Positions 6,647-64,000 of a stretch of 64,000 nucleotides of DNA are shown piece after piece. How positions within the stretch are numbered: the first letter of the stretch is position 1; each line of letters begins with the position of its first letter. The notes beneath the pieces are model-generated. The model ran no database searches and had not been told where the DNA came from. It saw only the letters and a list, made by a program, of their open reading frames with translations. The DNA is from Clostridia bacterium. GTDB taxonomy: Bacteria; Bacillota; Clostridia; TANB77; CAG-465. The position numbers and the translations under genes were made by a program. The stretch covers positions 88,577-152,576 of the forward strand of contig JAVWPP010000002.1 of NCBI GenBank assembly GCA_036635835.1. The letters are read 5' to 3'.

Positions 6647-6701
6647 TATTTAGATGTATTAATTTATACTTACCAAATAAATATTTGGGGGAGAGGGTTA
6701 T

Positions 6702-6995
6702 ATGATGGATATAATGAAATTTAAAAAGATTGAGGACAGTATATCAGATGTGGATCTAGAAAGTTGGAACGAGAGTTTAAAAGTACTAGAAAGAAGCTAT
6801 AGATGTGAGTTAAAGTTTAGAATGAATCAGTTTAAAAAGAGTCAAAAACAAATCACACTTATAGAAGACAGACACATAATCATTGCCGCAGAAAATATAA
6901 ACAAATTAGCTAAACAAGATGTAATAAAAACAGAGCAGATAAATGATATAAAAAAGTTCGCATTTGTACTAGTTCATTCACTTGTCAAAGGATAA
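6702..6995 (+). CDS. Hypothetical protein (97 aa)
   Basis: GGGGGAGAGGG RBS region upstream. Own promoter and terminator. No family recognised. Confidence 0.65.
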   Translation: MMDIMKFKKIEDSISDVDLESWNESLKVLERSYRCELKFRMNQFKKSQKQITLIEDRHIIIAAENINKLAKQDVIKTEQINDIKKFAFVLVHSLVKG

Positions 6996-49407: not shown

Positions 49408-50234
49408 TGGAATTATATATTTCAAGCAAAGATAATGAAAAAATTAAAAATATCAAAAAGCTAGATGACAAAAAATACAGAAATAAAGCTGGATTATTTG
49501 TAACAGAAGGTATTAAGATAGTTAGAGAAGCAATAAACTCAATGTATACCATTGAGTTTATTGTATATAATAGAGAAACATTAGAAAAAACAGATAACGG
49601 GCAAGATATACTAAATGAAATAGAAAAAAAATGTACTAATACAACTTGTATATCTGTTACGAAAGAAATATTAGAATATCTAACAGATACGGTTAATCCA
49701 CAAGGAATTATTGCTGTTATAAAAAAAGAAGAAAAAGATATTTTAGATTATTTATCTTTAAATAAAAAAGAAAAATTTCTAATTATTGATAGAGTTCAAG
49801 ACGCTGGAAATCTAGGCAGTATAATAAGAAGTTGCAACGCATTTTGTGTAAAAAATATAATATGCGTTAAAGGGACTGTAGATCCGTATATGAATAAAGT
49901 TGTTAGAAGTACAATGGGTGGAATTTTAAAAACTAATATTTTTGAAATAGAAGAAGAAAAAATAGAAGAACTTATTAATGCATTAAGAGAAAAAAACTAT
50001 AAAATCTTCACTACTTCGCTGTATAATTCTTTAGATTTAAGAGATATAGTCAAAGAAAATAAAATTAACGAAAATGCAGTTTTTGTTGTAGGAAACGAGG
50101 CAAATGGAGCATCAGATATGTTTCTAGAAAAATCAGATTTAAGAGTTAGAATTCCAATGGAACCTACCGCTGAATCTTTAAATGTAGCTATGGCTACTAG
50201 CATCGTTCTTTACCAACAATATATCGCAAAATAA
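49407..50234 (+). CDS. TrmH/SpoU-family RNA 2'-O-methyltransferase
   Basis: DRVQDAGNLGSIIRS, VFVVGNEANGAS, IPM...ESLNVAMATSIVLY motifs. The ATG overlaps the prsA TAA. Confidence 0.8.
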   Translation: MELYISSKDNEKIKNIKKLDDKKYRNKAGLFVTEGIKIVREAINSMYTIEFIVYNRETLEKTDNGQDILNEIEKKCTNTTCISVTKEILEYLTDTVNPQGIIAVIKKEEKDILDYLSLNKKEKFLIIDRVQDAGNLGSIIRSCNAFCVKNIICVKGTVDPYMNKVVRSTMGGILKTNIFEIEEEKIEELINALREKNYKIFTTSLYNSLDLRDIVKENKINENAVFVVGNEANGASDMFLEKSDLRVRIPMEPTAESLNVAMATSIVLYQQYIAK

Positions 50235-50321
50235 GAATATTAACAAAGTAAAAAGAATAAGAATATAATATATGAAAGTATATTTTGTCTTATTTTTTTA
50301 TGCAATATTAATACAGAAATA

Positions 50322-50350
50322 TTGACAAATACATTTTTATATGTTAGAAT
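50322..50350 (+). promoter_or_regulatory. Sigma-A promoter (extended -10) driving the large ncRNA
   Basis: TTGACA, 17 nt spacer, TAGAAT, with TG two nt upstream. Confidence 0.65.
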
Positions 50351-50356
50351 TAATAC

Positions 50357-50925
50357 ATGGTGCAGTATTCTAGTCGGAGTATCTTTTGCAAAGGTGGGCC
50401 TAAAAATCCATCACAGGGCAAATCGTTGACGATTTGTATATTTGCTTTCGTCGCCCAGACGGGGGCATTTATATGAAGAAGGAATTAAGGCGCAGCTACA
50501 ATGGCATGTAGCTAAGGGCCTTCTTTCCGTGAGGCATTACAATCTTTTATGTATACAGTTAAAAGTGTAATGAAAACCTAGTATTAGAGAGTACTAATAT
50601 TAGTTGTAGCCTGCCGTGAGTGGATGTAGCGAATAAGGAGAATCATATATTTTATGTGTGGCCACATATCAAAATGTATCTGTCCTTTGAAATTACAGCT
50701 GCAAAAGCGGATAAGCATAAGATTAAGCTTCGTTTGGGAAAACCTCTAGACTGTTGCTTTAGCAAGATATATTTGGGATTAAAGTGTGGACTAAGTGGCA
50801 ATCAAGTCATCCTTATTACAGGATTGTTATACTTTAAAGGGAAACCGCTACGAGGAAACGAGTAGTAGACAGCAGGGAAATCCTACTTGACCTAAGCCGC
50901 AAAATTTACCTTATATATCACCTAA
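50357..50925 (+). ncRNA. Large structured non-coding RNA (about 570 nt), candidate OLE-class RNA
   Basis: G+C-enriched relative to flanks (25/60 and 29/60 G+C in lines 50401 and 50461, versus 18/60 at 51901). Many nested hairpins. The only ORF is a GTG-start one with no RBS. Own promoter, and a small membrane-protein gene directly downstream. Confidence 0.6.
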
Positions 50926-50945
50926 AATTTTTTTTATAAAATAAA

Positions 50946-51623
50946 GTGAGGCAATTAAAAGTGAACAAAAGTGATTGTGATCAGGAAACTGGTAAAAGCA
51001 ATAACGATGATTCTGCTGATGGCAAGCCCATAAGCAAGTCGAAAAACAAAACAAAAACAAAAAGTAAAAAAGCAAAAAACACATGGATTTATATTATATT
51101 TGTGATAACATTTATTATTTCGATAATAATGGGATCTGTATCTAATATACTTGTTACTAAGTTAAATTTATTAGCAGCAATATTTATATTAGCAACTATT
51201 ATATTTATTGGTATTATATTTGATATGATTGGTATGTCTGTAGCATCTGCGAGCGAAGCTCCGCTGCATGCAAAGGCAGCAAGAAAACATGCTGGTGCAA
51301 AAGAAGCTATAAAGTTAGTAAAATATTCTGAAAAAGTTTCTAATGTTTGTAACGACGTTGTTGGCGATGTATGTGGAGTTATATCCGGTGCAGTAGCAAC
51401 AATGCTTGCAATAAAAATTGCAAAGTATTTAAATATCGAAGATGGTATCACTTCATTATTACTAGGTGCACTTGTTGCATCGCTTACCGTTTCAGGTAAA
51501 GCCATTGGTAAAGCCATTGTAAGTAATTATGCAGAAGACATATTATATAGAGTTGGAGCAATTATACATTTTATATACCCAGTGAAAGAAGCAAAAAATA
51601 TAAAAAGTAAAAAAAGTAAATAA
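50946..51623 (+). CDS. Small multi-pass membrane protein, candidate OapA-like partner of the upstream RNA
   Basis: Hydrophilic K-rich N-terminus, then about four hydrophobic helices. MSVASASEAPLHAKAARKHAGAKEAIKLV lies between TM1 and TM2. The start is ambiguous (GTG 50946 or GTG 50961). Confidence 0.6.
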   Translation: MRQLKVNKSDCDQETGKSNNDDSADGKPISKSKNKTKTKSKKAKNTWIYIIFVITFIISIIMGSVSNILVTKLNLLAAIFILATIIFIGIIFDMIGMSVASASEAPLHAKAARKHAGAKEAIKLVKYSEKVSNVCNDVVGDVCGVISGAVATMLAIKIAKYLNIEDGITSLLLGALVASLTVSGKAIGKAIVSNYAEDILYRVGAIIHFIYPVKEAKNIKSKKSK

Positions 51624-52412
51624 ACATAAAAAATAAAAATGCGAAAGTGTTTTTATTTTTTTTCAACAATTTTTTCTTAAAAGCTATTTACAATAAAAAA
51701 TATATAGTATATACTTTAAGTATAATAAATAAAGTAAATTGTGAATATAAATATTTAGCAAAATTTATCCAGAGAAATTTCGAAGGAAACTAGTAAGAAG
51801 GATGTAAACTAACTATCCCCAAAATACATGTTATTTAAATCATTGAAAAATCTAGCCATAGCAAGGTTATTGCTGTTAACAAAATAAGTTTAGAAAGATA
51901 TAGTAGAGATCTATTAAGTCCTAGGATTAGATTTTGATGTTCTCGGTTTAAAGTCTAAATAAAGGCAAAATTAAATTATGGGTTTCTTAACGAATAATTG
52001 AGATTTAAAGAATGATTAAAAAGAGTAGTAATAAAAATAAATTTAAAGTTTTGTATATACCAAGATATAAGTATATCTAGAATACATTATATGAATGATT
52101 AATAGTTTAATTAAACAGAATTAAGATACATAGAGCACAGAGAAAGGCTCATTTAAAAATATATAATAAAAATGAAATTTCTTAAATAATATAAAGCGAA
52201 TGTAATGAACAATACTAAAGATAAAAATTATACTAATCATGTTAATAGTTGATGAAATATAATATAAAAACAAATTAAACAAAAGATAAATGGAAGTTAG
52301 AATGTAAAATATCCGGAAATTAAATTAGCCTTTAAATTGATTGAAAATTTTATAGAAAAGTGTAAGTTTCTAAAAATAAATCAATGGCAGTTTAAACTAA
52401 ATAAAGCAAACA

Positions 52413-52445
52413 AAAACACAGATGATTATTCATCTGTGTTTTTAG
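52413..52445. terminator. Bidirectional rho-independent terminator
   Basis: aaaacacagatga ttat tcatctgtgtttt 13-bp stem flanked by an A-run and a T-run. Overlaps the stop of the minus-strand gene. Confidence 0.85.
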
Positions 52446-55028: not shown

Positions 55029-56744
55029 TTGAAAATTATATATATGAATGCGCTTAAAAGAAAATTAAAAATAAACGATGAATTGTTAGAAATTATATAT
55101 GAATTGTTAGAAAAACTAAGAATTTTCGGCTATGTTTCTAATTCTAAAGAAATGGATTTAGTAGATAAACTATATAAAAACATAGATAAAATAGTAATAG
55201 GAACAGATGCAAAAGAAGATCTTAAGTCTGGATATTATGATGCGCATAAAAAAGAATTATATTTAAGAGACATAACAGATAAAAATGCTGTATACCAAAG
55301 ACTTATTTATGCTATGACTACTAGAGAAATAGATAAAGATAAATATATGGTTGGCTTTAGTTATACCTCAGCTCAAAAAGGTAGTTTCAAATATAGATAC
55401 GAAGGATATGCTTTAAATAGAGCAGTTGTTGCAACGCTTTCTAATAAACTTTGTGAAAGTAAAAACGATGAAATGTCTTTAAAAGTAATGTATAAAACAT
55501 ATAAAACAAATTTTTTAGGTTACGATATAATTGCTGAAAGCGATAATTATTTTTTAGAATCTAATTTGTTAAACCAATTATGCTTTGCACTTAGCGAAGA
55601 TAAAAATAATATATATAAAATGCTTTTTGATAGAACTCCACTTATAAACATGGATAAGATGTTTAAACGTTCCGAGTTTGAGTCAAAAGAGTTTATATCT
55701 GTTTTAGATAGTTTAAGCAAAAAGTATTTTAATTACAATAAAATACTTTCATATGTTAATGAATTAAATTCAAACTTTAGTAAGCAGCAAAGATTAACTG
55801 GTAAAACAGATAAAGATAAAAAAGCATTAATAAAAGAAGAAAAAAGATTAAATAACTTAATAAAAGATACAATTACTAAGTATTCAGATGTTAAAGATGT
55901 AGATCAAGATTCAGTTAATTCAAATGAATTTTTGGAAAAATGTGAAACAGATATTGTAGATTATATAATAAAACTACAAAACATTTTAACAGATTATATA
56001 GCAGATGATACAGTGGACATAGAGCCATATGCATTTGCATCTAAACTTAAACAGTTTAATGATATTGTTATAGTTAAAAGCAATAAGATAAGCAATTTGT
56101 TGTTTGAAACAATAACAACAAAAATCCTGAAAAACCCTGAAATAACTTCAGTTAATTTAATAGAAAAAATTAAATATTCTTTAGTTAACGAACTAATGTC
56201 AACAGATAAATTCAAAGATGTGTATAACGATTTCTCATTTAAAAAAATATTAGATAAATCAGATGACAGCGCTGCATATATAATTGTTCAATCTAATGGG
56301 CATTTTGTTGAAACAGTTAAAGTTTCAGATTTACAAAAGTCAATGAGAACATTGCAAAACAATACAAGAGTTATTTTGACAGATAATTTCAAACATATTT
56401 TAAATAGCGATTACATGAATGAAAATTTAAGCAAAGTAGAGCGTGTTTACACTAAATTAAAAGAAAAATATTCATACTTTAATAAGCTAAAAATGGAGGA
56501 AGTTAATTTCTTTGAAGAAGATAATAAGATGTACTTATTAATGCAGTATAAAGGTGCTTTATACGTTTCTTTAGTAAAAGAAGACTTAGGCGTTACAGAC
56601 ATACAAATGGTTGACGTATCCGAAGAGTATTCAATATTCACACAAACAGTAGGCAAGAAAATTTCATTATTACCAGTACTGTATAAAGAAAAAGGTGGAA
56701 TATTCAGTTTATTTGCAAAGTTTAAAGCAGTATTTTCAAATTAG
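55029..56744 (+). CDS. Hypothetical protein (571 aa), no recognisable domain
   Basis: GAGGGA RBS 6 nt before TTG 55029 (alternative ATG at 55044). Flanked by terminators on both sides. Confidence 0.6.
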   Translation: MKIIYMNALKRKLKINDELLEIIYELLEKLRIFGYVSNSKEMDLVDKLYKNIDKIVIGTDAKEDLKSGYYDAHKKELYLRDITDKNAVYQRLIYAMTTREIDKDKYMVGFSYTSAQKGSFKYRYEGYALNRAVVATLSNKLCESKNDEMSLKVMYKTYKTNFLGYDIIAESDNYFLESNLLNQLCFALSEDKNNIYKMLFDRTPLINMDKMFKRSEFESKEFISVLDSLSKKYFNYNKILSYVNELNSNFSKQQRLTGKTDKDKKALIKEEKRLNNLIKDTITKYSDVKDVDQDSVNSNEFLEKCETDIVDYIIKLQNILTDYIADDTVDIEPYAFASKLKQFNDIVIVKSNKISNLLFETITTKILKNPEITSVNLIEKIKYSLVNELMSTDKFKDVYNDFSFKKILDKSDDSAAYIIVQSNGHFVETVKVSDLQKSMRTLQNNTRVILTDNFKHILNSDYMNENLSKVERVYTKLKEKYSYFNKLKMEEVNFFEEDNKMYLLMQYKGALYVSLVKEDLGVTDIQMVDVSEEYSIFTQTVGKKISLLPVLYKEKGGIFSLFAKFKAVFSN

Positions 56745-59738: not shown

Positions 59739-62700
59739 ATGGAAAAACAAAAGATAAAAAATAGTTTTAAAATAATATGTATGTTGTTTGCTTTAGTAGC
59801 TTCATCTGCGCTATTTAGCACTGTAAATGCATACCAAATAAATATAAGAACTAAAAGATTACTAAGCGATGATCAGTTTATAAGATATAGAGTATATGGA
59901 TCTCCGCATCCAAATAAAATAAGTGCCGCTATACTTGGGGAAAACCACTCTCAGTACAACAGCTTAATTTCCGCATCTACTATTAGATATAACGGATTAA
60001 ATAACTGGGTAAACTTTACCGCAGCTAAGCAAGGCGCTCCAAAGACTAATTTGTACTATAATACAGACTCAGTAATATTCCATGCAGAGCCACTTTCAGT
60101 CTACCCATCAAGTCCTACTTCTGCAGATAGAGGTACATACTACTATTCCAAATACACAAGCAACTGGACAGAAAGTATAAATTCTTCTGTTAATGAGGCA
60201 ATGAATTTAGATACAGTAGCAGGTAGCTGTGCAAGGCCATATAAGAAGGGAAATGCAGATAGCATATACAAAGAAGCATATCCTTTATATAATGCAGGAA
60301 GTAAAAATGGATATATAAGACCATTTAGAGCAACTATACTTTGTGCAGGCTGTAATACAGGTTTACATAGCCTAGCAGGTCAAACAGGAAATCCAAATTA
60401 TGGGTCTCTAAGATCTGGGCATGTATCTGTAACAGATTATAAGATTTCTAAAACAGGTTATGACGATATATTAAGTAAATTTAGCAATAAAGCAATTAGA
60501 GAAGGTAATGAGTACTATATCTACATGTCAGATGTTAATTATACAATTGGCGGATATAGTGCATATCCAAACGATACAGTGTATGCAGCAAATAATATAG
60601 GAGACTTCTATAATCAAACTTATGCACCAAACGGAGCAAATCCAAGATGGGCAATAGACCAAAGAGGTGTGAACAATCAAGGAAATGCACAGCCACTTTC
60701 TTCTTTAATAAACGCTTACGATAATAAATTCTATTTCCCAGAACCACCTACTAAAGAAATGGTTATTAAATATTATGACGTTTCTGGTAGAGATGAAGCA
60801 AATAGAATGATTTTAGATAGAACAGTAACAAGTAAAGTAGTATTCAATAAGCAAGATAACAGTATGTTTAACCAAGGAGATATGAATAAAATGGCCTTAC
60901 CTGCTAAAACAGAAGTAAGAACTATTCCAGCAGACCAAACTGGTGCCTTTACAGTAGATTCTGGAGATTACGAATATGTTGGATATAATCAAAAGCTAGT
61001 AAATGAAGAAAACTATACAAACAAAAGAGATTTAACAGTAATAAACAAATCTAAAAACGTTGTTGGTTCAAAAGGAACATCTAAAATATATGTAGACGTA
61101 TTCTTAAATTCTAAAAAAAGAGTATATGTTAAACATATAAATACAACAGAATTTTATAATCCAAGCACATTAACTATGCAAGGCATAAATAGCAATCTAA
61201 TAAATGCATGTGCAAGAGTAAATAAAACACCTAAGCAGTCTATACTATACCAAAATGGAAATATAATTGGTAGTATTGTAGCAAACGCAACAGCCCCAAG
61301 CTACGATGAGTGCTATATCATAGATTGGAACAAAGAGCTAGAAGTTACAAATGCAAAAACAAATCAGCAGCAGTACATTGGATATAGATCAGTTGCTGCA
61401 AGTAAAAAACAGTTAGCAGAAAGATATTTCACAAATTTATATAACGGCGGTAAATTAACGTTTACACTTGCAGATAGAGATAAACGTGTATTTACAACGC
61501 AAGATAGTGTAAACACATTTGTAGATATGTATTATGTAGATGAAGAGCCAAATAAGCCTACAAATCCAGAAGATGCAAAGCCAGTTGAAATTAATCCAAA
61601 TGGACTACTATGTTTCCAGTCAGACGATGAGAAATTTAAAACTACTACTAAAAATGAATTTGCTCCTTCAAAAATAGAGGCAGACAAAATACCAAGTTCA
61701 GAAGATTTAAAATATGGAGTTTTAGACATTAAAGAATATATAATAACTAGAGCAGATGTTTCATCTCAAAATGATATTATTAGATACGATAACGGAAAAA
61801 ATCTAGTTAGAATACCTTATGAATTTTTCAATTCTAAGAATTTGCTTATGTTTACAATAGCAGATACTATGAAACTTCTAGATAAAGGAGAAAACATTGG
61901 CTCACTACTTTTTGCAAAAGACGCAGATAAAGTCTTAGACATACCACTTTCAGAAGAGTATAAGAAAAACATACGAGAAACTTCTCTTATTGACGGAAGT
62001 ATTAAAGTAGAAGAATCTTCAGATAATATACCATGCTCAAACAGCTGTAACGGTATATGTAAAAATCATTATATAACAGTTAAAATAACAAATATGAGCC
62101 TAATATATAAAGGACAAAATATAATTCCAAATTACGAGCAGTCAACAGGTAAAATATTAATTAGAAAAGAAAGATGTAAACTTGTAAACGGAGTAGCAGT
62201 TATAGACGATAGAAAAACAGAATACTTAACTCCAACAAATAAGAAATTAACATGCGATGGATATATTAATAAATTATCAGCAGCTGTAAAAACAGCTAAT
62301 GAAAAAGCTACAGTAAGAGATATGAATTATCTATATCAAAAGAATTCACAAACAATTTTAGCAGAAAAGTTCAATGGAATGAGAGTGCCACAAGCAACAT
62401 TTGGCTATAATATAAATAACGGCATTAAACATGCAGATGTTATAGATAAAGTAAATAACAAGACACTTAAAGAAAAAGACAAAGAAGTTGAACCAGTTAT
62501 TATACACACTCCAGTAATTGCAGAAGTTGTGCTACACAGTGATGGAAGTTTTGTAAATCATACTGGAAAACCAGTAGAAGCTAATAACGTAATTCAAAAG
62601 AACGTACCATTTAAAATTTATCCAAAAACAAGTGGAATATTACATACAACATATCCACTAGTAAAAGAATTCGATAAATATACAAAAGAGTACTATGTAA

Positions 62701-64000
62701 AATTTAATTTCGATATTCAGTATGTAGAGTATTATAAAGATGGTGCTACAAAACCATACACAAGAAATAATACAATGCAGCCTACTGGAACATGGATAAA
62801 GATACCTAAAGGAGAATATATATCTGCACAAGCTGTATACGATCCAAATCAGGTACAAAACAGCGTAGTAGATGCAATAGACAGTGAATATAGAATGAAA
62901 GTAGTTGCAAACAACGCCCCAGCAGAATCAACAGGGTACACAAAAGCAGCCCTTACATTAGATATTTGGGGAGATAGCAAAATGAACATTAACACAAGGC
63001 CACATAAAGAGTTCCATCCTCAGGTATTAGAGCAAGAAGCAAAATACATGGCATTTGTAAAAAATGATGCATCAATACTTGGAAGAATATATGACTTTAG
63101 AGTAACAGACGTAGTAGATATAGACTGGAAAAATGTATTTAGAAAAGACGATGCAATAAACCACACAGGTAGATTCTATTATTCTGGATTATTCAAATGG
63201 GATATGCTATCTAGCCAGTCAAATCAAATGGTTCCAAGGAAAGATAGTGAAGTTGGATCTTCACCAAAAAGAACTTTACCAGTAGGACCACTTAAACATA
63301 CAAACACAGGCTATCAAGCAGCTCCAAAACTTGGATACAGATTTGCTTTTGATGTTAAAACAACAGGAAGCATAGGAGATAATGTATCAAAAGAAGTAAA
63401 TATCAAACCTAGATTCTACTATATTTCAAAAGACGGTAAAGTATATAATGATAAAATTAATTTATATTATAAAAACTCTACTAATAAATATATAAAAATA
63501 GGATCAGCATCAGATAAATATAAAATTACTATGAGACCTGCAGATGGACTTAGACATTTAGCAGAATATGAAAAATCATATAATAAAACAAATTTATCTA
63601 CAAATATAATCTCTATAGGAAACATATCAGATATAAAACTTGCACAAAAAACAAATATGGCAACTAACGATAATGCCTTCTTACAAATTTGGTATGGAGA
63701 ATATAAGCTACCAAACTCAACAATAGCAGTAGATGCAAATCAGAACGATATAGGAAAACCATTAACAAACGGATACATAGGTATTATTTTCGATATTTCT
63801 TGTAAAGAAATGAAAAATGGTGCAGTTGTTAATGAAATATTATATGGTGCAAATGATTTAAATGCAGCAGGAGTAAACACTACTCAGTGGGATTATGAAG
63901 GGTACTTAGGAAGCACTGCAGGAAGCCAGTTTAATGGTAAATTACAACTTCCTTCAGGAAATCTAAACATAGATAATGCTCTTTATGAAAAAATTAGAGG
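59739..64000 (+). CDS. Very large secreted protein (more than 1420 aa; 3' end beyond the window), no recognised domain
   Basis: Absent from the ORF track because there is no stop codon in the window. I read the frame codon by codon from ATG 59739 to 63998 and found no stop. An in-frame TGA at 59718 closes it upstream. Signal peptide MEKQKIKNSFKIICMLFALVASSALFSTVNA. Confidence 0.8.
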   Translation, partial: MEKQKIKNSFKIICMLFALVASSALFSTVNAYQINIRTKRLLSDDQFIRYRVYGSPHPNKISAAILGENHSQYNSLISASTIRYNGLNNWVNFTAAKQGAPKTNLYYNTDSVIFHAEPLSVYPSSPTSADRGTYYYSKYTSNWTESINSSVNEAMNLDTVAGSCARPYKKGNADSIYKEAYPLYNAGSKNGYIRPFRATILCAGCNTGLHSLAGQTGNPNYGSLRSGHVSVTDYKISKTGYDDILSKFSNKAIREGNEYYIYMSDVNYTIGGYSAYPNDTVYAANNIGDFYNQTYAPNGANPRWAIDQRGVNNQGNAQPLSSLINAYDNKFYFPEPPTKEMVIKYYDVSGRDEANRMILDRTVTSKVVFNKQDNSMFNQGDMNKMALPAKTEVRTIPADQTGAFTVDSGDYEYVGYNQKLVNEENYTNKRDLTVINKSKNVVGSKGTSKIYVDVFLNSKKRVYVKHINTTEFYNPSTLTMQGINSNLINACARVNKTPKQSILYQNGNIIGSIVANATAPSYDECYIIDWNKELEVTNAKTNQQQYIGYRSVAASKKQLAERYFTNLYNGGKLTFTLADRDKRVFTTQDSVNTFVDMYYVDEEPNKPTNPEDAKPVEINPNGLLCFQSDDEKFKTTTKNEFAPSKIEADKIPSSEDLKYGVLDIKEYIITRADVSSQNDIIRYDNGKNLVRIPYEFFNSKNLLMFTIADTMKLLDKGENIGSLLFAKDADKVLDIPLSEEYKKNIRETSLIDGSIKVEESSDNIPCSNSCNGICKNHYITVKITNMSLIYKGQNIIPNYEQSTGKILIRKERCKLVNGVAVIDDRKTEYLTPTNKKLTCDGYINKLSAAVKTANEKATVRDMNYLYQKNSQTILAEKFNGMRVPQATFGYNINNGIKHADVIDKVNNKTLKEKDKEVEPVIIHTPVIAEVVLHSDGSFVNHTGKPVEANNVIQKNVPFKIYPKTSGILHTTYPLVKEFDKYTKEYYVKFNFDIQYVEYYKDGATKPYTRNNTMQPTGTWIKIPKGEYISAQAVYDPNQVQNSVVDAIDSEYRMKVVANNAPAESTGYTKAALTLDIWGDSKMNINTRPHKEFHPQVLEQEAKYMAFVKNDASILGRIYDFRVTDVVDIDWKNVFRKDDAINHTGRFYYSGLFKWDMLSSQSNQMVPRKDSEVGSSPKRTLPVGPLKHTNTGYQAAPKLGYRFAFDVKTTGSIGDNVSKEVNIKPRFYYISKDGKVYNDKINLYYKNSTNKYIKIGSASDKYKITMRPADGLRHLAEYEKSYNKTNLSTNIISIGNISDIKLAQKTNMATNDNAFLQIWYGEYKLPNSTIAVDANQNDIGKPLTNGYIGIIFDISCKEMKNGAVVNEILYGANDLNAAGVNTTQWDYEGYLGSTAGSQFNGKLQLPSGNLNIDNALYEKIR

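Follow-up and report, generated by a model that had tools for sequence, protein, structure and literature searches.

A probable ole-oapA operon in a Clostridia bacterium of the TANB77 lineage

A 64,000-nt stretch of contig JAVWPP010000002.1 (GenBank assembly GCA_036635835.1; positions 88,577 to 152,576 of the forward strand), which belongs to a Clostridia bacterium of the lineage Bacillota; Clostridia; TANB77; CAG-465 and is hereafter called the window, carries a G+C-enriched segment of several hundred nucleotides directly upstream of a gene for a small membrane protein. The question raised by this locus is whether the segment specifies a large structured RNA and, if so, of what kind. The initial annotation, made from the sequence of the window, proposed an OLE-type ribonucleoprotein locus or, as a fallback, an undescribed large RNA. 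RNAs of the OLE type (ornate, large, extremophilic) count among the largest and best-conserved bacterial RNAs without a known biochemical job. The analysis reported here indicates, with a probability of roughly 0.93, that the locus consists of an OLE RNA and an oapA gene forming an ole-oapA operon, a known kind of system. This interpretation is based on a full-length match to the Rfam family RF01071, on covariation in homologues and on the OapA-like protein encoded downstream; it bears out the first of the two initial proposals, while the fallback is excluded, the RNA being OLE.

Identity of the RNA and support from homologous loci

The whole window was compared on both strands with 4227 Rfam families at their gathering cut-offs using cmscan. 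RF01071 (OLE) matched the forward strand at 50341-50940 with 357.6 bits (E 1.9e-101), about seven times the curated gathering score of 50, and the match covers positions 1-616 of the 616 positions of the model, i.e., its full length. This comparison with the OLE model is the check that the initial annotation had named, and no other RNA family reached its threshold in the region. In the window as a whole, the only other families detected were three tRNAs; at gathering cut-offs on both strands, no RNase P, tmRNA, group II intron, ROOL, GOLLD, HEARO or raiA was found, in agreement with the first reading, in which signatures of RNase P, tmRNA and group II introns were looked for and not found.

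Measured from the 5' strand to the 3' strand of helix P1, the OLE RNA occupies 50356-50925 (+), and the Rfam match adds flanks on both sides. The resulting length of about 570 nt is the one estimated initially and agrees with the size expected of OLE (about 600 nt, of which about 25% is highly conserved). When the consensus structure was projected on the window, 137 of 159 pairs were canonical, 18 were non-standard and four fell in deletions; 208 of the 249 conserved (upper-case) consensus nucleotides were identical. The minimum free energy (MFE) calculated for 50356-50925 was -161.4 kcal/mol, compared with -139.3 +/- 6.7 kcal/mol for dinucleotide shuffles (n=100; z -3.29), none of which was equally stable. 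The G+C enrichment seen initially was also recovered: the G+C content is 34-40% from about 50300 to 51000 and 22-28% in the flanks, the value for the whole window being 29.8%.

Homologous loci were collected by means of the downstream protein, for which 348 homologues were found in the protein database, the best being 68% identical. An alignment of 18 of these homologues (A1) was used to retrieve 80 loci from a species-level genome collection, in which the best OapA is 56% identical, so that the species of the window itself seems to be missing from this collection. The closest relatives of both OapA and the OLE RNA are all metagenome-assembled genomes (MAGs) of uncultured gut Clostridia, to be compared with the anaerobic or extremophilic Bacillota that typically host OLE. 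In an nhmmer search with the window RNA, 76 of the 80 loci had an OLE-like match 5' of the protein gene and in the same orientation, and in three of the remaining four the upstream flank is lost at a contig end. OLE directly abuts the oapA homologue in 72 of the 74 loci measured, and Rfam confirmed OLE in 11 of 12 loci tested. Departures from this arrangement were seen in individual loci: L024 has an oapA homologue without OLE within 6 kb upstream, while in L043 (2858-3331) and L045 (6-181) OLE is found upstream of oapA at a distance of 2 kb and 6 kb, respectively.

The OLE sequences of 65 loci were aligned with MAFFT on the basis of sequence only (alignment A2), and base pairs were counted for the Rfam-derived structure. 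Canonical pairs occupied 79.8% of cells, versus 39-49% when the 3' partners were slid by 1-3 columns. Two-sided changes were found in 109 of 137 pairs (57-74 in the slid controls), and the covariation score was 0.417 (0.08-0.16 in the controls); none of 500 shuffles reached any of the observed pairing or covariation values. P7, the tip of P9 and P13 scored poorly because they are length-variable regions that MAFFT misaligns. The consensus OLE structure is strongly supported by covariation across the 65 homologous loci, and the second check proposed initially, that of covariation in homologues, therefore also turned out in favour of OLE.

Among the relatives, locus L002 carries a bacterial RNase P RNA (RF00010, 259.8 bits) at 6649-6977, directly 3' of oapA, so that two large structured RNAs are located on either side of one small membrane-protein gene.

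The downstream membrane protein and the transcription unit

The gene following the RNA, oapA (50961-51623, +), begins about 35 nt beyond P1. The longest open reading frame (ORF) starts with GTG at 50946 and encodes 225 aa, as initially described; the N-termini of homologues, however, align to the GTG at 50961, which has the ribosome-binding site GAGG (50948-50951) 9 nt upstream, and the start was revised to this codon, giving a protein of 220 aa. The approximately four transmembrane helices ascribed to it at first reading correspond to four long helices (residues 46-72, 75-101, 128-162 and 166-210) in an AlphaFold (AF2) model with a mean pLDDT of 74.8. This model shows disorder over residues 1-41 and a short helical insert of basic character at residues 104-126 (HAKAARKHAGAKEAIKLVKYSEK), in which H108 and K114 are invariant in alignment A1 and which may correspond to the conserved cluster of positive charges that OapA carries on its cytoplasmic face. 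All 18 family-invariant residues of A1 are kept in the window protein.

The only Pfam match of the protein is CNNM (DUF21, PF01595), with 20.5 bits against a cut-off of 28.4; PF01595 is precomputed on many of the homologues. A scan of NCBIfam gave chance-level matches only, and a sequence profile search of the PDB yielded no match at E up to 1. The top four PDB matches obtained with Foldseek are weak (TM 0.40-0.49, E 6e-3 to 6e-2) and correspond to the archaeal CNNM protein MtCorB (7M1T and 7M1U). Published OapA (OLE-associated protein A) sequences have four transmembrane helices and weak CNNM homology, with 7M1U as the top structural match (PMC11332333, PMC12265935). With the curated libraries uninformative, the fold, the weak CNNM homology and the linkage to OLE identify the downstream protein as OapA by the operational definition of the family.

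The features shared with known OapA include a size of about 200 aa, four predicted transmembrane helices, the lack of any other Pfam domain, a gene position directly after ole, a basic helical insert between helices 2 and 3, weak CNNM/DUF21 similarity and the resemblance to CorB (7M1U), this likeness being drawn from published properties. The window protein differs in having a low-complexity, Lys-rich N-terminal extension of about 45 residues (pLDDT <50), which is variable among homologues. The membrane domain of MpfA, CorB and CorC, the CNNM Mg2+ exporters, belongs to the same fold family; unlike them, the window protein has neither a CBS pair nor CorC_HlyC, its monomer crosses the membrane with four helices instead of three, and its gene is linked to that of an RNA. 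MpfA has been reported to anticorrelate with OLE (PMC11332333).

A sigma-70-type promoter is predicted at 50322-50350 (+), comprising TTGACA (50322-50327), a 17-nt spacer and TAGAAT (50345-50350), and matches at 11 of 12 positions. It is the promoter noted initially and carries an extended -10 TG at 50342-50343. The predicted start, at about 50356-50358, coincides with the first base of P1. Promoters matching at 10 or more of 12 positions and ending 2-12 nt before P1 were found in 20 of the 65 OLE loci, compared with 0.5% of random positions, and therefore a dedicated promoter is common in the sampled loci.

Upstream of the promoter, an AU-rich terminator-like hairpin with a U-run (50251-50299, +; -17.2 kcal/mol by RNAfold of 50231-50325) closes the row of mfd, prsA-like and SpoU-methyltransferase genes and would act as their terminator. 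A second hairpin of terminator-like type follows oapA at 51628-51670 (+; -10.8 kcal/mol by RNAfold); its AU-rich stem of 15 bp is capped by GAAA and precedes a U-run, and, to judge from its sequence, it may mark the end of the ole-oapA unit. Between OLE and oapA, as had been noticed initially, no terminator was found, either by a simple scan, which needs at least three G-C pairs and misses both of the AU-rich hairpins, or by local folding, which gave only -3.0 kcal/mol. This layout suggests that ole and oapA form a compact two-gene unit with its own strong promoter, bracketed by terminator-like hairpins, whereas ole of Halalkalibacterium halodurans lies within a long polycistronic transcript (PMC12265935). 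In such a unit the promoter at 50322-50350 would drive both genes, with transcription running from the first base of P1 to the hairpin after oapA, and a stable OLE RNA would be released or accumulate from the joint transcript. A run of eight U residues is located at 50927-50934, 1 nt past the 3' strand of P1, and is not preceded by a local hairpin; the Rfam consensus, too, is U-rich at its end. This run may represent the 3' end of the RNA, or a site of partial termination by which the proportion of OLE to oapA mRNA is set.

The orientation of the RNA and oapA on the same strand, about 35 nt apart and with no terminator between them, the U-run after P1 and the nearly universal linkage of the two genes could also be explained by a long leader that acts in cis, like a riboswitch or an attenuator, controls only the membrane-protein gene and involves no trans-acting RNA. 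This explanation is very improbable. The RNA is a full-length member of the OLE family, and OLE is documented as an abundant, stable and membrane-localised RNA that binds OapA, OapB and OapC (PMC12265935). Moreover, OLE and oapA are 2 kb and 6 kb apart in L043 and L045, the U-run is not preceded by a local hairpin, and known cis-regulatory leaders are far smaller than this RNA, with its length of about 570 nt and about 25 helices.

Architecture of the RNA and its protein docking sites

The current literature model of OLE includes the long-range helices P1-P3 (PMC12265935), by which the molecule is closed and its two domains are joined. The Rfam structure line does not contain them, but all three can be traced in the window. 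P1 (50356-50361 with 50920-50925; six stacked pairs) and P2 (50362-50366 with 50750-50754; five stacked pairs) were recovered by a covarying-helix scan of the 65-sequence alignment, in which their pairs are 88-100% canonical, with up to four pair types per position. The same scan also gives many short chance stacks between conserved G/U-rich columns, and only P1 and P2 were accepted, because both agree with the topology in the literature. P3, whose sequence is variable, was tested locus by locus with RNAduplex, the segment between P2 and P4 being paired with the segment after P9. In the window, the 5' strand of P3/P3.1 (50375-50389) pairs with 50715-50732 in a duplex of 14 bp (-14.2 kcal/mol, z -2.8), and such a duplex forms in every one of the 65 loci (medians 15 bp, -15.5 kcal/mol and z -2.7). 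P3/P3.1, named here after PMC12265935, is the stem proposed in the literature as membrane-spanning.

The remaining helices follow in the order of the family structure, all on the forward strand. The P4 hairpin (50393-50412) carries the A-rich loop CCUAAAAAU and corresponds to dimerisation centre 1 (role from PMC12265935); it is paired at 99.7% (helix 1), with four of six pairs covarying, and 64 of 65 sequences share its loop motif. The P5/P5.1 hairpin (50433-50477), with the loop GCCCAG, and P6/P6.1 (50481-50528), with the loop CAAUGGCAUG, supply the two partners of a kissing-loop contact. Helices 2 and 3 of P5/P5.1 are paired at 90-98%, with two-sided changes in 14 of 17 pairs, and helix 5 of P6/P6.1 at 99.4%; the loop motifs are found in 58 and 64 of the 65 sequences, respectively. 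P7 (50536-50571) and P8 (50578-50603) are short: 36 nt against a family median of 61 (17th shortest of 65) and 26 nt against a median of 34 (10th shortest of 65). P9 (50614-50710), in turn, has its full length of 97 nt (family median 96) and corresponds to dimerisation centre 4; it bears a symmetric GGCC loop at 50660-50663, a motif shared by 53 of the 65 sequences, and its helices 11-13 are paired at 91-99%. In one relative, L048 (5129-5857), an insertion of about 110 nt with a long inverted repeat (A2 columns 520-628) is present inside P9; it resembles a mobile or palindromic element of small size that has been inserted into the RNA gene.

The 3' domain ('domain 2', 50736-50919) is made up of the GGGAAAACC hairpin, a hairpin at 50754-50765 and nested long-range helices (50766-50776/50909-50919, 50785-50789/50897-50901 and 50802-50807/50885-50890) that enclose P13 (50809-50824) and P14/P14.1 (50825-50874). 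Helices 19-21 of this domain are paired at 97-100%, with two-sided changes in 17 of 20 pairs. According to cryo-EM data, the contacts of the OLE dimer are made by the A-rich loop of P4, the loops of P5.1 and P6.1 and the symmetric loop of P9 (PMC12265935); at the sequence level, all four loops are kept in the window.

Most of the helices picked out by the initial annotation could be placed in this structure: agctaca/tgtagct is P6.1, the helix at 50535-50571 is P7 and tatgtg-tggc-cacata is the tip of P9. The helix aagaagg/ccttctt overlaps P6, but its register differs from that of the consensus, which pairs GGAA/TTCC plus AAGG/CCTT. The helix caaatcg/cgatttg at 50419-50436 can indeed form in the window; it is not, however, a helix of the family.

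The k-turn that binds OapC in H. halodurans is located between J4a/5 and J5/6 and consists of U84, C85, a 3-nt bulge, G89 and A90 opposite A142, A143, G144 and G145 (PMC9723947). The putative OapC site of the window has its 5' strand at 50423-50429 (+) and its partner, AAGG, at 50479-50482, and the cmscan alignment shows, at the level of sequence, that the nucleotides U84, C85, G86, U88, G89, A90, A142, A143, G144 and G145 are retained. The 3' strand was read from this structure-aware alignment, the MAFFT columns being misaligned by a 2-nt deletion in the window. The 7-bp hairpin at 50419-50436 (caaatcg-ttga-cgatttg) is specific to the window, the closest relative, L001, having no counterpart; it ties up the k-turn's 5' strand, is in competition with the basal part of P5 and is adopted in the MFE fold. 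It may represent an alternative conformation or be coincidental.

The primary OapB site is formed by a GNRA tetraloop together with a one-nucleotide bulge on P13 (PMC7936274). P13 of the window (AUCCU-UAUUAC-AGGAU), which has a 5-column deletion in the cmscan alignment, contains neither the tetraloop nor the bulge according to that alignment and a motif count. The G-GNRA-C motif of P13, a feature of the full-length OLE type, is present in 52 of the 65 relatives and missing from the window. The loop class was taken from the motif count, since an earlier assignment by RNAfold on segments cut from the alignment and a crude hairpin finder proved unreliable because of a gap block. The GAAA loop of P14.1 (50855-50858), a weak secondary OapB site, is retained. 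The primary OapB docking site is therefore absent from the window RNA, and because P13 lacks both the GNRA loop and the bulge, the RNA probably works without OapB docked there. No KOW or L7Ae domain, indicative of oapB, also named ybzG, and of oapC, also named ybxF, was detected in ten proteins scanned, mostly small ORFs, all of them from the 64-kb window.

Comparison with full-length OLE RNAs (H. halodurans, and Clostridium acetobutylicum and C. botulinum with cryo-EM structures) shows that the window shares their length class, helices P1-P14.1, dimer loops and k-turn core, most of the conserved nucleotides (208/249), the position of oapA directly downstream and a neighbourhood of DNA-repair and cell-wall genes. 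It differs in P7 (36 nt, median 61), P8 (26 nt, median 34) and the lack of the GNRA loop or bulge in P13. Variant 1 of OLE, described by Fernando and Breaker in 2024, combines short P7, P8 and P9 with the loss of the P13 nucleotides that bind OapB and is common in TANB77 uncultured gut Clostridia (PMC11332333). Three of these four features (short P7, short P8 and missing P13 nucleotides) are found in the window, whose nearest relatives are likewise MAGs of uncultured gut Clostridia, whereas P9 is not shortened and its GGCC loop is intact. The reverse combination, a short P9 (56-60 nt) with the GNRA motif of P13 kept, is seen in the relatives L002, L003 and L080. The reductions in the window are therefore of a mixed kind, which is mildly unusual, as is its self-contained promoter-to-terminator layout. 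On the whole, the locus belongs to the known OLE family as an ordinary, slightly trimmed representative, with nothing new in kind.

Several observations weigh against this assignment. The score of 357.6 bits is below that of classic full-length OLE RNAs (404-547 bits) and lies between these and the nearest relatives L001, L002, L003 and L080 (289-306 bits). The OapA candidate is above threshold in no curated protein family, and no solved structure matches it by sequence. Finally, with short P7 and P8 and without the OapB site on P13, the complex may not be the same as that modelled for H. halodurans.

The low score, the shortening of P7, P8 and P13, the 29.8% G+C content and the ORF-free 800 nt adjoining the locus might alternatively be taken as signs of decay, i.e., of a non-functional OLE relic in a reduced genome. 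There is little chance of this, given that canonical pairing still holds for 137 of 159 pairs, that the conserved nucleotides are preserved at 208 of 249 positions, and that the four dimer-contact loops, the k-turn core and P1-P3 are all intact. The partner ORF is also intact, with the 18 invariant residues of A1, the promoter is near-consensus, and P7 and P8 are described as dispensable parts of the RNA (PMC12265935). The least probable explanation, that the region encodes an 81-aa protein and its apparent RNA structure is incidental, has in its favour an uninterrupted GTG-initiated ORF at 50620-50865, recognised at the outset as the only internal ORF and as devoid of a ribosome-binding site, but this ORF has no Pfam or NCBIfam family and is not conserved, the homologous stretch being open for at least 70 codons from the same start in only six of 65 relatives, and the substitutions are base-pair compensatory rather than codon-like.

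Genomic neighbourhood and the proposed particle

The genes upstream of the ole-oapA unit are, in order, murB, a CofD/YvcK-like gene, a gene for a glycogen-debranching enzyme, ruvC, genes for a patatin-like protein, a CAP/SH3 protein and a DUF2344 protein, mfd, and genes for a PrsA-like isomerase and a SpoU methyltransferase. Downstream follow a gene for a DUF4364 protein (-), cmk, a plsC-like gene, a gene for an O-methyltransferase, an ORF of 571 aa, glmU (-) and rmuC (-). The clustering of ole with DNA-repair and cell-wall genes has been reported (PMC12265935), and the neighbourhood in the window fits this pattern. The downstream order DUF4364, cmk, plsC and O-methyltransferase is shared by locus L003.

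Some features of the surrounding sequence may be mentioned. Between the hairpin after oapA and the DUF4364 gene, at 51624-52425, there are about 800 nt with 21% G+C and no ORF of 60 aa or more, containing two promoter-like sites on the forward strand (51687-51715 and 51876-51904). A permissive Rfam scan of this segment gave only a hit at chance level, and nhmmer found no similarity to it in any of the 80 loci; L003 has no such gap, its DUF4364 gene being located close behind oapA. The 571-aa ORF (55029-56744) has no Pfam or NCBIfam family, and a 31%-identical relative is encoded within 6 kb of oapA in L002. The apparently ORF-free region from 59.7 to 64 kb proved to be a single ORF of at least 1420 codons (59739-64000), which runs off the end of the window and has no Pfam family at E 1e-5.

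By analogy with the H. halodurans system and the Clostridium cryo-EM structures (PMC12265935, PMC9723947, PMC11332333), a dimer of OapA would bind the RNA near P4a and hold it at the membrane, and two OLE RNAs would dimerise via the loops of P4, P5.1/P6.1 and P9. On the evidence of the same studies, the resulting particle may help the cell against stress caused by short-chain alcohols, cold, excess Mg2+ or poor carbon sources. One could tentatively go further and suppose, although this is less likely than not, that the window encodes a pared-down OLE particle, which has lost the primary OapB site and in which P7 and P8 are short, while the whole P9 arch, all dimer contacts and the k-turn are retained, and which forms a self-contained module with oapA under its own promoter. 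If this were true, and the genome also lacked oapB, the locus would represent a natural minimal OLE-OapA core, in which the lineage-specific hairpin at 50419-50436 might act as a protein-independent switch by way of the k-turn strand.

Recent structures suggest that OLE RNA spans the membrane, and the present locus shows that an RNA of this kind can be recognised from raw sequence at the first stage of reading. As a compact natural example with its own promoter, no OapB site on P13 and a full P9, it could help to ask which parts of the OLE particle are dispensable.

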